NCBI RefSeq assembly: GCF_004010195.1
Contig: NC_057719.1
Location: forward strand, 25,572,348-25,615,666
DNA length: 43,319 bases
Reading direction: 5' to 3'
Source: Chiloscyllium plagiosum
Lineage: Eukaryota
Shown piece by piece: positions 3,079 to 13,221 of this stretch (position 1 is its first letter; each line of letters opens with the position of its first letter). The notes under the pieces were generated by a model that did not search any database, was not told the DNA's origin, and saw only the letters and a list, made by a program, of their open reading frames with translations. A program made the translations under genes and the position numbers.

Positions 3079-3652
3079 TGTAAATATATGGCTTACTTGA
3101 AAAACAGAAGACTGGCTGTGACTGTGGATGTATTCAGCATTCAGAAGCCTGTGGTGACGCTGTCTAACCCACACAGGGGGCGGTCACATGACGTTCCGTT
3201 TCACGCCCCTGAAGAGTGCAGGGCGGTCACGTGATGTTCCGTTTTGCGCCCCGGAAGCGGGCCGAGGAGGTCACATGATGCTCCGTTTCGCGGGCAAAAG
3301 AAGGTCACGTGGGGTCGGACATCCGGGAATGCGAGGAGGCGGGGAATGGAGTCAGATCAACACCCAATCAGAAGATAATTGTACCTCAGTGTTTATATAA
3401 CGTTTTTTATTGTATAAAAGACTGGGGCAGGGATAGAACGAGGTCTTACTTTTTGAACTGGCACACTTTGTAGTTTGTCAGGGACAAAGAGGTTTAGACC
3501 TAGAGCTCTGAATGCTTTATCCACTTACTGTTTAAAATAAATTAAGAGTGTGAGACTGAATATCTTCTCCTATTGCTTCATTTAAAAGAACACGCAGGAC
3601 TGGGCTCACACATAGAAGAAAGTAAGCTGGTAGATTGAGCCAAAGTCCTACA
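3079..3652 (+). repeat. 5' LTR (574 bp)
   Basis: Direct repeat of 12650-13221; TG...CA ends; CCAAT 3364-3368, TATAAAA 3413-3419, AATAAA 3536-3541. Confidence 0.97.
3183..3311 (+). promoter_or_regulatory. U3 enhancer tandem repeats (~43-44 bp period; E-box plus E2F-like sites)
   Basis: Four GTCAC(A/G)TG cores; the first three are followed by G(T/C)TCCG and a TTTCGCGC-like motif. Confidence 0.7.
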
Positions 3653-3655
3653 AAT

Positions 3656-3673
3656 TGGTGACCCCGACGTGAT
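3656..3673 (+). promoter_or_regulatory. Primer-binding site, tRNA-Trp
   Basis: TGGTGACCCCGACGTGAT, 18 nt, 3 nt after the LTR; matches the tRNA-Trp PBS sequence known from avian sarcoma/leukosis viruses. Confidence 0.92.
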
Positions 3674-3761
3674 GAAGACGGAGGAGTGACGGAAAGAGAG
3701 AAAAATAGAAACAACGGAGAACTGACGTTTGATGACAACAACAAGCGGCGCCGCATAAAAA

Positions 3762-3770
3762 AAGGTGAGC
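3762..3770 (+). promoter_or_regulatory. Putative major splice donor
   Basis: AAG|GTGAG in the leader, about 90 nt after the PBS. Confidence 0.6.
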
Positions 3771-3872
3771 AGATGCCTGTTTATATCGAAGTTCTGCAAG
3801 TGGAGATACTAAATTGATTGTTGTCATTATTCCGCAAGTGTCCTAGTAATAGTAAGTGGATAAAGTATTGAT

Positions 3873-3985
3873 AAGGTACGTACGGGTTTAAAGTCCCTTG
3901 GGGTTAGAGTCCCCATAAAAGCAACAAGGTACGTACGGGTTTAAAGTCCCTTGGGGTTAGAGTCCCCATAAAAGCAACAAGGTAC
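3873..3985 (+). repeat. Perfect 53-bp tandem repeat in the ERV leader (about 2.1 copies)
   Basis: Units start at 3873, 3926 and 3979 (partial). Confidence 0.95.
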
Positions 3986-4355
3986 ATATGTGTGAGGAGG
4001 TTTAAAGTCCATTGAGCAGGATCTCATAAAATCAACGCTCACAAATTTTGGTTTATGATTGATGTGTTGTAAGTTTAAAGAATTATATTGGGGAGTGTAC
4101 GGAGGGTGGTAGAAAAGCCAGTACCGTTTTGAAGACCAAGACGGTGGTGTTTCAGTGAGAGAGAGTCGGTAGTGGAAACCTAACGGTGACAACAGAACTG
4201 CTGATAAATCTCGCTGAAAGGGTCAGTTGCTCGGGTGTACTCCATCCAAACTGACCAGCCACCGGCTTTGTCTTTGATTGGGTTGGTTGCTCGGTTATAT
4301 TTATATCCAAACCAACTGACTACTGGACGGGAGGATTAAAACAAAAATACATAAA

Positions 4356-9815: not shown

Positions 9816-10232
9816 GCAAAAACAGTGATCAAATTCTTGATAAACCAATATATTCCAACGCATGGGTTTCCAAAGAGAGTCAGGTCAGATAATGGCACAC
9901 ATTTTAAGAATAAAGACCTGCAAGAAGTTGAAGCAGCTTTAGGACTGAAACATACGTTTGGAACAGTGTACCTTCCTCAGTCACAGGGAAAAGTGGAAAG
10001 AATGAATCAGTCCATAAAAGGAAAAATAGGAAAAGTGTGTGCACAAACAAAGTTAAGCTGGGTGGATGCCCTACCCTTAGCTTTAATGTCCATTAGAAGC
10101 TCAGTAAATTCTATTACAGGGTTCACCCCGTATGAGCTGACAACAGGGCAGCAGTTCCCGGGACCAGGAGCTGGAATACAGATGTTAGAGGGAGGAGGGG
10201 CCTCTCTAAGGTACAAACCTTACTATGACCAA

Positions 10233-10266
10233 CTAACAGCTCTGGTGTCAGCTTTCTCCAAACAGG
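10233..10266 (+). promoter_or_regulatory. Putative env splice acceptor
   Basis: Branch-point-like CTAAC 10233-10237, pyrimidine tract CTTTCTCC, CAG|G at 10263-10266. Confidence 0.55.
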
Positions 10267-10526
10267 TTGGATCGAAAAAGGGGGAACTACAGACCCAGAT
10301 GCCATCTACCACAGACTGGATCCTGCAGAAGGTGATCCTGCAATAGTGGTTGGAGCCGAGGTGGACAGGACCTTATAAGGTGGTGGAGAGGACATCTCAT
10401 GCGGTCAGACTAGAGGGGAAAGGAGAAAGCTGGTACCATTGGAGCCAGTGTGCAGCTACGGAACCGCCAACGAGAACTCTAGAACAAATAAGAACAGAAA
10501 AAGAGTAGAAGGGTCTTAAACGTTTA

Positions 10527-12605
10527 ATGTTTGCAGGAAGAAGGTTCTGGAAAAAGGGGGGAGAAGTTCTCAAGATTTCTAAGCAAAGTTGTGTCAAGGA
10601 TATAATGTTTATCTCTGTAAGCAGCCCACATTACCTTAGGCTGTGGAGATTGGGAGTCTTTGCTATTGTCTTATACATAAGTGTTATGCTGCTGTTAATA
10701 GGAGTATTAACCACGAGGGACAAACACACAGGCAAGGGAGGAAGTTCCAGGAACAAAACAGCAGTAGGACAAGAGGCGGATAAATGTTTAAGGGAGACGA
10801 GGAGCCAGGTACACATCAGACACGATAGAAATCATGGTACAACATACCAGTTTGATTTATACGAAGTAATTGATTGTGGCAAAGATATAGGGAGCTGGAG
10901 GGAGTATGATGTATACCTTTGTTTCTATGCCATTTACTATGACCCATGCTCGTCATGGGATAATGTATTAACATGGACTGGGGTACGATGGACCCCCAAG
11001 AGGTTGTCACCTTCGGATAATAGATGGAACATTCGAGACCATGTGACCCTGACAAAGGGGCAACTCGATCATTCTTCAGAGCTAAAAAATCCACTTTTGT
11101 TAACCCTGACAAAATTTGATATTAATCCTAGTCCAAAAGAGGTACAAATTTACTGTGAGAGTGATGACAGAAGCTTTTATCTTGTTTTCGGTGTAGACCA
11201 ATCTGGAGTGGATAACATGGGATTATTGAAGGTAATCTTAGTGGACCCTCCTATGAGCCAGCCACAAACTGAAAATACAAGTATGGAGATAGAACCAAGT
11301 TCAGGAGTTGTGGTAATAGACCACAACAACCTTACGAGAAGGGATATTATTAAATTAGTTACCGGGTATGGGGATAAGAACTTATGGCTGGACTGGATGA
11401 CAGCGACCGCAACCTCAATGAATATGAGTAATTGCGTCGCATGTTCCTCGGCCAGGCCAACCCTATTTACTACCCCAGCCCCAATGTTCCCTAATATAGA
11501 CCCAATCGGATTTCACTGTATGATGGCCCTCACTATGCAGGTGGACCCTCCAAATTGTACTACATTAAGTGCTATTATCCCACCTGTAAAGAATTCCACG
11601 CTGCCTCCAGTGTTTACACCAAGGGCCAACAATTACACGTGTTTTGCTCGAAAGTCAAATATTGTCTTGGGAGACATGCCCACTGACTGGTGTCAGGATA
11701 CAATTAATGTAACCGGCTGGCAGAACGCTAGCACAATGGTTTGGGCCAGAGCTGATCTTTTTTGGTACTGTGGAGATAGAACACTGCATATTAGTCTACC
11801 TCCAGATTGGTCTGGAACCTGCGCAATGGTTAGGTTAGGGGTACCCTTATTCCTTTTGGGAGAACGGCGACAGGGAATAAATCCGTATACACGAATTCGC
11901 AGGGATTTGTTTGATGTCACATCTGGCTCAACCACTTACATAGATGCAATAGGTGTTCCCCGTGGTGTACCTGATTGGCAGACCAGATAGCAGCAGGGTT
12001 TGAGAATCTCCCAATTATCGGTGTTTTATTCCCAGTTACGCCGAATAAAAACGTTGACCGAATTAATTATGTACAATGTACTTAGGCTCGCCAATAGAAC
12101 TAGAGATGCGGTGGCGGGACTCTCTGAACAATTGGCAGCGACTTCATTGATGACCGCGCAAAATAGAATGGCTTTAGATATGTTATTAGCAGAAAAGGGG
12201 GGAGTGTGCTCTATGTTCGGAGACCAATGTTGTATGTTTATCCCCAATAATACGGCACCCGATGGCTCGGTAACCAGAGCCCTGGAAGGACTAAGAACTT
12301 TGTCTGAAGAAATGCATGAACATTCCGGTATTGATAACCCTCTAGGAGGCATTTTCGACTCATGGTTTGGGAAACGGAAAGGATTAATTGCCTCTGTGTT
12401 TATGTCCCTTGGTGGTATGATTATTGTGTTAGTGTTGTGTGGATGTTGTTGTATTCCCTGTATTAGATCTTTGTTGAACAGGGTAATCATTACAGCAATT
12501 GATGGGAAGGCTCCCCTGCCCTACCAGATGTCACAGATGGAGACGGAAACCATGGCTTTCGCAAGAAGGGAAGACTATGCATCGGAGAGCGAATGTGATG
12601 TATAG
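10527..12605 (+). pseudogene. env: ERV env, gamma-type (two compensating frameshifts near 11975 and 12073)
   Basis: N-terminal hydrophobic segment; CVAC (CXXC); furin site RIRR 11892-11903; YIDAIGVPRGVPD; immunosuppressive domain AQNRMALDMLLAEKGGV 12156-12206; CX6CC 12207-12233; TM anchor followed by a Cys cluster. Confidence 0.95.
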
Positions 12606-12637
12606 AACTGCTTTGTTGGTCTCATTATTATGAGACC

Positions 12638-12647
12638 AAAAGGGGGA
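12638..12647 (+). promoter_or_regulatory. Polypurine tract
   Basis: AAAAGGGGGA two nt before the 3' LTR. Confidence 0.85.
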
Positions 12648-12649
12648 CT

Positions 12650-13221
12650 TGTAAATATATGGCTTACTTGAAAAACAGAAGGCTGGCTGTGACTGTGGAT
12701 ATATTCAGCATTCAGAAGCCTGTGGTGACGTTGTCTAACCCACGCAGGGGGCGGTCACGTGACGTTCCGTTTCGCGCCCCAGAAAAGTGCAGGGCGATCA
12801 CGTGATGTTCCATTTCGCGCCCCGGAAGCGGGCTGAGGAGGTCACGTGATGCTCCATTTCGCGGGCAAAAGAAGGTCACGTGGGGTCGGACATCCGGGAA
12901 TGCGAGGAGGCGGGGAATGGAGTCAGATCAACACCCAATCAGAAGATAATTCTACCTCAGTGTTTATATGACATTTTTTATTGTATAAAAGACTGGGGCA
13001 GGGACAGAACGAGGTCTTACTTTTTGAACTGGCACACTTTGTAGTTTGTCAGGGACAAAAAGGTTTAGACCCAGAGCTCTGAATGCTTTGTTCACTTACT
13101 GTTTAAAATAAATTGAGTGTGAGACTGAATATCTTCTCCTATTGCTTCATTTAAAAGAACACGCAGGACTGGGCTCACACAAAGAAGAAAGTAAGCTGGT
13201 AGATTGAGCCAAAGTCCTACA
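12650..13221 (+). repeat. 3' LTR (572 bp)
   Basis: Repeat of 3079-3652; AATAAA at 13107-13112. Confidence 0.97.

Follow-up and report, generated by a model that had tools for sequence, protein, structure and literature searches.

Simple fish retroviruses related to the swim bladder sarcoma virus of salmon (SSSV) are the closest described systems to the element considered here, a provirus at positions 3079 to 13221 of a stretch of DNA from the bamboo shark Chiloscyllium plagiosum. The stretch, referred to below as the window, comprises 43,319 nucleotides (NCBI RefSeq assembly GCF_004010195.1, contig NC_057719.1, positions 25,572,348 to 25,615,666, forward strand), and its own numbering is used throughout. 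In the zebrafish endogenous retrovirus (ZFERV), an SSSV-related element with three genes, gag and pol have been described as sharing one frame with a predicted read-through (PMC3382231, in part). A survey of gamma-type Env proteins in fish and amphibians has reported epsilon-related class I endogenous retroviruses (ERVs) that carry a gamma-type Env and have no accessory gene; passages of the same survey also place this type in cartilaginous fish and count 46 orthologous groups for Chiloscyllium (bioRxiv 10.1101/2021.11.23.469661). Lineages II and III of the elephant shark CmiERVs have been described as epsilon-related ERVs of a cartilaginous fish, with a long terminal repeat (LTR) divergence of 0.024-0.033 (PMC4422223, in part). 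In walleye dermal sarcoma virus (WDSV) of the genus Epsilonretrovirus, a 2H phosphoesterase domain has been reported (excerpts of PMC9503650). CNPase in epsilon-like fish ERVs has been reviewed (PMC4977317, in part, which cites Basta et al., 2009), and a CNPase-like insert in fish retroviruses is already known.

The shark locus is very probably the germ-line copy, now dead, of a simple retrovirus of the SSSV type (class I and epsilon-related). Its env is of the gamma type expected of SSSV/ZFERV-like simple fish retroviruses, and no accessory genes follow it. A 100/100 split separates two reptile class I ERVs, taken as outgroup, from a group that joins its Pol with SSSV and teleost ERVs (in a tree that omits WDSV).

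Structure and decay of the provirus

The features that mark a retroviral provirus were all found, namely paired LTRs with TG..CA ends, a target-site duplication, a primer-binding site and a polypurine tract. They are listed here together with the genes, which encode among others reverse transcriptase (RT) and the surface (SU) and transmembrane (TM) subunits of Env.

3075..3078, + strand: target-site duplication, left copy, inside a decayed non-LTR retrotransposon
3079..3652, + strand: 5' LTR, 574 nt, TG..CA ends; internal marks are a 43-nt repeat (2.6 copies) at 3178-3289, a TATA-like box at 3413 and AATAAA at 3536
3655..3672, + strand: primer-binding site for tRNA-Trp, 18/18 bases
3873..3985, + strand: exact 53-nt tandem duplication in the leader
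4356..6536, + strand: gag, start approximate; in-frame stops at 4935 and 5655; single CCHC knuckle at 6318
6530..6900, + strand: protease region, in a frame different from that of gag; degenerate active-site motif
6901..7545, + strand: 2H phosphoesterase insert of CNPase fold, placed between protease and RT, with both H-x-T motifs
7559..10508, + strand: RT, connection, RNase H and integrase, spread over several frames; 537 bases read N, and integrase has an in-frame stop at 10344
10602..12605, + strand: gamma-type env, start approximate, broken at about 11975-12070
12637..12649, + strand: polypurine tract, directly 5' of the 3' LTR
12650..13221, + strand: 3' LTR, 572 nt, TG..CA ends
13222..13225, + strand: target-site duplication, right copy, 4 bp

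The two LTRs are identical at 549 of 572 aligned sites; the other 23 comprise 20 transitions and 3 transversions (Kimura two-parameter distance 0.042), and the alignment has a single gap of 2 bases. No other copies of the LTR occur within the window. The target duplication is CCAG; the match holds over 4 bp and fails at 5 or 6 bases. The insertion interrupts a decayed long interspersed nuclear element (LINE), as indicated by a Pfam RVT_1 match in the left flank, and a second LINE copy in the window continues across the position equivalent to the insertion site. We take the split host LINE to be CR1-like. The 18 nucleotides of the primer-binding site are the complement of the 3' end of tRNA-Trp as printed in part of bioRxiv 10.1101/400127. 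An Rfam search gave no match, and inspection of open reading frames (ORFs) in the rest of the window revealed no host-gene-like ORF.

Six of the 11 pieces searched had Pfam matches, and along the element these ran in the order zinc knuckle, protease, RT, RNase H, integrase (a match below the Pfam cut-off) and TLV_coat. The gene order is gag-pol-env, and integrase lies downstream of RNase H. Exactly one CCHC knuckle was counted across all three frames of gag. The env motifs comprise a CXXC motif in SU at 11433, a furin site at 11892, a segment in TM resembling the immunosuppressive domain (ISD) at 12159 and CX6CC at 12207. Only 44 nt separate the env stop from the 3' LTR, which leaves no room for accessory genes after env. 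The best matches of the RT in the PDB were gammaretroviral-type RTs, Moloney murine leukaemia virus (MMLV) among them (E 6e-40 to 6e-31), with weaker matches to the Pr125Pol group (E 2e-26) and HIV-2. The RT thus appears closest to gamma and epsilon retroviruses, as expected for class I, a placement that reflects the ranking of PDB matches and 51% identity to SSSV rather than a full reference tree. These results agree with a sequence-only reading of the window, made by a model from the letters, which had recognised both LTRs, the target-site duplication, the Trp primer-binding site, the polypurine tract, a single zinc knuckle, a gamma-type env and a gap of 44 nt too short for ORFs of the walleye-virus accessory type.

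The same reading had called the provirus complete and its lesions limited, and here it went too far. In pol, a run of 537 N bases stretches from the end of RNase H into the start of integrase. Besides the three in-frame stops listed above, five frame changes lie between gag and RNase H (near 6535, 6900, 7560, 7775 and 8393) and two more in env (about 11975 to 12070); short deletions relative to the nearest relative and the degenerate protease motif add to these. The three stops fall in about 2480 codons, against a rough neutral expectation of six. Judged by its sequence, this copy cannot encode full-length Gag, Pol or Env, and the provirus is dead. The reading had also described gag and pol as in frame. 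Since protease is here read in another frame than gag, this copy does not show such an arrangement; it is suggested by its relatives.

A retroviral integrase inserted the virus into an old LINE, as the 4-bp duplication and the TG..CA ends show, and decay followed. How the virus may have worked can be proposed from its features. Reverse transcription would have been primed by tRNA-Trp from the site at 3655-3672. Pol was presumably made by read-through of the gag stop and env from a spliced RNA. SU and TM may have been linked covalently via CXXC and CX6CC, and a CNPase-like enzyme was perhaps borne by the virion.

Several further observations were made within the window. The tandem repeat of 43 nt in U3 (about 2.6 copies) is present at 3178-3289 and 12749-12863 and contains E-box-like cores (CACGTG/CACATG). 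At 0.75, the observed/expected CpG ratio of the LTR exceeds those of the element's interior (0.47) and of the 3' flank (0.21). The leader duplication is exact although the LTRs differ by 4%; it either arose recently or is a repeat made by the assembly. Integrase and env share one reading frame (10509-12605). Elsewhere, a pair of LINE-derived copies on the minus strand (24585-26151 and 28088-29650) lies about 3.5 kb apart, and the two are 87-92% alike.

The CNPase-like insert

The 2H insert is an open frame of about 215 codons between protease and RT. It went unseen by Pfam, and a PDB sequence search gave nothing useful. A fold model reached a mean pLDDT of 77.5 when built with a 13-row alignment, against 35.7 from the single sequence. 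When this model was submitted to Foldseek, all listed matches were CNPase or fish RICH proteins (best E 2e-7, TM-score 0.54). The two histidine motifs (H-x-T/S) were present in 39 of the 42 relatives that span the region. A PF08302 feature was found in the Atlas matches (0.95; 31-63% of members) and serves as a lead only, its recognition value being low. By its two motifs and its modelled CNPase fold, the insert appears to be a CNPase-like 2H phosphoesterase, in keeping with the sequence-only reading.

The most likely job of the domain would be the opening of 2',3'-cyclic phosphate ends of RNA, as in CNPase; alternatively, it might destroy 2'-5' oligoadenylates. Both roles have been proposed for viral 2H domains (PMC9503650, in part). 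A functional test of a retroviral CNPase-like domain was not found in literature searches aimed at that question. Both catalytic motifs are retained in SSSV, teleost and shark members, and this conservation is one of the two points that give the locus value beyond itself.

Relatives in sharks, rays and bony fishes

The closest proteins come from Chiloscyllium and Hemiscyllium, as expected if, as had been proposed, this is a class I provirus of a cartilaginous fish. Pieces of env are 91-93% identical to proteins of C. plagiosum and C. punctatum, and TM is 88% identical to a protein of Hemiscyllium ocellatum; these two genera account for four of the 76 env matches. Among the 60 matches to the RNase H piece, six are Chiloscyllium fragments (86-92% identity) and one is a protein of the ray Narcine (72%). 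These protein neighbours fit a bamboo or carpet shark as the most likely host and suggest that the family is multi-copy and has multiplied in Hemiscylliidae. Two env relatives deserve separate mention. One from Hemiscyllium (P0059) aligns at the start of SU and in TM and skips mid-SU, reflecting an internal deletion or an artefact of the gene model. The other (P0047) is filed under a metagenome-assembled genome of Aeromonas salmonicida and probably comes from DNA of the fish host that was binned with the bacterium. A run search returned parts of the element in 20 of 24 rows, from nine studies and three organisms, with a best share of 0.38; no RNA run was among the rows listed, and these bear on neither expression nor host.

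The divergence of the LTRs corresponds to 95 million years at 2.2e-10 per year and to 21 million years at 1e-9, with a sampling error that alone amounts to about 40% either way. The lower rate is the one assumed in part of PMC4422223. For the epaulette shark, 7e-10 per generation has been measured, and the passages of that paper giving this value hold no yearly rate (PMC10587355). By LTR divergence, the age of the copy would be tens of millions of years, with wide error.

Outside elasmobranchs, the nearest kin are ERVs of teleosts, namely grouper (Epinephelus), remora (Echeneis), mackerel, pufferfish and soldierfish. These are automatically annotated proteins from bony-fish hosts, several with long open pol frames; identity is 65-81% for the pieces of RT, RNase H and integrase, 58-66% for 2H and 70-81% for TM. 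The two nearest proteins are P0001, which is unnamed and clusters at 90% with a giant grouper record, and P0002, in whose cluster remora records are found. Identity to the grouper cluster is 80.7% in the RNase H piece (SSSV, 42%), 77.2% in RT (51%), 79-80% in integrase (46%) and 65.9% in 2H (31%).

Trees were built piece by piece. RT and TM phylogenies against WDSV, ZFERV, SSSV, snakehead retrovirus (SnRV) and shark ERVs had been proposed with the sequence-only reading; those built include SSSV, which falls on a separate branch, and shark ERVs, which have marine teleost neighbours, while WDSV, ZFERV and SnRV are in none of the trees. For RNase H, 153 of 236 matches were dropped and the remainder reduced to sets of 30 and 27 rows; the env trees kept 37 and 40 rows, most unnamed env rows being left out. 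In the 27-row mixture-model tree, rooted with two reptile ERVs, the shark and ray rows group together (98/91). Joined to the rows of grouper and remora (89/89), they sit within three more teleost nodes (91/94, 82/86 and 90/88). Marine teleost neighbours were also recovered in the RT (92/94), integrase (99/98) and TM (94/94) trees; the 2H and SU trees gave no resolution at the shark-teleost node. In the approximately unbiased (AU) test, teleost monophyly, the host-congruent constraint, was not rejected on the 27-row set (p-AU 0.083). Other AU tests gave 0.041-0.048, 0.014-0.12 (two of them confounded) and 0.017-0.126, most of the tested groups having been named after a tree was seen. The last range comes from RT and integrase tests redone without the confounding icefish rows, which group apart there, and is the one relied on.

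Did the shark family arise from a virus of bony fishes? A crossing from marine bony fish into elasmobranchs is compatible with the SSSV-like provirus proposed above, and on balance we favour it. Pol is 77-81% identical to the grouper cluster against 42-51% to SSSV, the elasmobranch rows are nested inside teleost nodes when reptile ERVs serve as outgroup, and the RT, integrase and TM trees agree on the neighbours. Jumps between classes are also to be expected, because ERVs of cartilaginous fish have been found scattered through the tree, with ray-finned fish as transmission hubs and frequent host switches in the clade (PMC6001957, in part). Against such a jump stand the constraint that was not rejected and the other AU values (0.014-0.126), the lack of resolution in 2H and SU, thin elasmobranch sampling (three genera), the shortness of the pieces (170-295 residues) and a grouper link that runs only through the 90% cluster of an unnamed protein. 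The same AU result would suit shark and teleost lineages that have diverged together since ancient times, or a jump from elasmobranchs to bony fish. The grouping of the Narcine protein with the shark rows would fit too, as would a slow shark mutation rate, which preserves old sequence (PMC10587355, in part). This alternative is nevertheless the less likely one, since the nested teleost nodes would have to predate the split of sharks and bony fish, and since the spread among teleost ERVs (to 50% in RT) exceeds the distance between the shark copy and the grouper cluster.

Some points weigh against the SSSV-like reading of the provirus itself. SSSV is distant (51% in RT, 42% in RNase H, 46% in integrase and 59% in TM) and forms a separate branch in all trees. 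Its primer site is not a Trp site, and the 16-mer found there occurs in papers on initiator tRNA-Met, as far as their excerpts show. An in-frame gag-pol was seen neither in this copy nor in the DNA of close relatives, for which a metagenome contig scan yielded one locus from 11 candidate stretches, a 1.9-kb contig. The enzyme role of the 2H insert is a predicted one. Could the element instead represent a separate class I lineage whose mix of features is its own and in which pol is translated by frameshift? The differing frames of gag and protease and the Trp primer site would suit such a lineage, which we hold to be improbable. A frame change at this junction is expected from decay, because six others are present, and in every other feature the element agrees with SSSV. 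Retroviruses change primer type readily, even within genera. An assembly chimera of two copies joined across the N run would be suggested by the position of that run inside pol in a multi-copy family. It is very improbable, given the matching 4-bp duplication, the continuation of the host LINE beyond the insertion, LTRs that are 96% alike and a pol that is colinear with its relatives on both sides of the gap. The SSSV-like provirus remains the explanation we adopt.

A fuller scenario is offered tentatively, at somewhat less than even confidence. In it, an SSSV-like virus would have crossed from marine spiny-rayed fish (nearest sampled kin grouper and remora) into elasmobranchs and spread in bamboo sharks and a ray, with an active CNPase-like enzyme kept in Pol across the jump. 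The remora is a fish that rides on sharks. If the scenario is true, the shark copies would be a datable record of transfer between classes and would anchor the age of the teleost virus clade. Taken by itself, the locus is unremarkable: the copy is dead, and its shark ERV family has many copies and is of a type already described. Its other value lies in being a concrete candidate for a jump from bony fish to sharks, with unusually close teleost kin and the prospect of dating through shark orthologues.

Comparison with described retroviruses

The mix of features, which the sequence-only reading had thought unusual, is not so, because SSSV shares the layout, the 2H motifs are widespread among relatives and the type has been published for fish ERVs, Chiloscyllium included. 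Among the five features that it had singled out, the Trp primer is the only departure from SSSV. The reading had thought that the lineage may be poorly described; the family was not found described by name in searches on the host and on shark epsilon ERVs, with subscription papers, repeat libraries and the supplements of the Env survey out of reach.

The ERVs of that survey resemble the shark element in their epsilon-related pol, their gamma-type env with ISD and CX6CC, and the absence of accessory genes (bioRxiv 10.1101/2021.11.23.469661); its passages on them mention neither a 2H insert nor primer type, and its supplements may list this shark family. The CmiERVs differ in having a chimaera host, and both they and ZFERV were likened to the window copy by published description rather than by sequence. 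WDSV shares the 2H domain. Its genome is described as complex, with accessory genes and a non-gamma env (bioRxiv 10.1101/2021.11.23.469661, in part), and the element in the window has neither. Judged by accessory genes and an epsilon-type env, the element stands outside the genus Epsilonretrovirus, which holds WDSV and walleye epidermal hyperplasia virus (WEHV).

The nearest described system in layout is SSSV. A scan of viral contigs gave a single locus from 83 candidate stretches, identified as SSSV via its envelope protein. In this genome (L001), gag, pol and env all lie in one frame, and env begins directly after the pol stop (7488-9551). Like the shark provirus, SSSV has a gag with one CCHC knuckle, the order protease-2H-RT-RNase H-integrase, a 2H insert homologous to that of the window (31% identity, E 1e-29) and a CX6CC env whose stop lies 114 nt from the LTR, with no accessory ORF of more than 150 aa. 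In SSSV the gag stop is followed by an in-frame pol, whereas gag and protease of the window copy lie in different frames. SSSV is exogenous and intact; the copy in the bamboo shark is endogenous and decayed.

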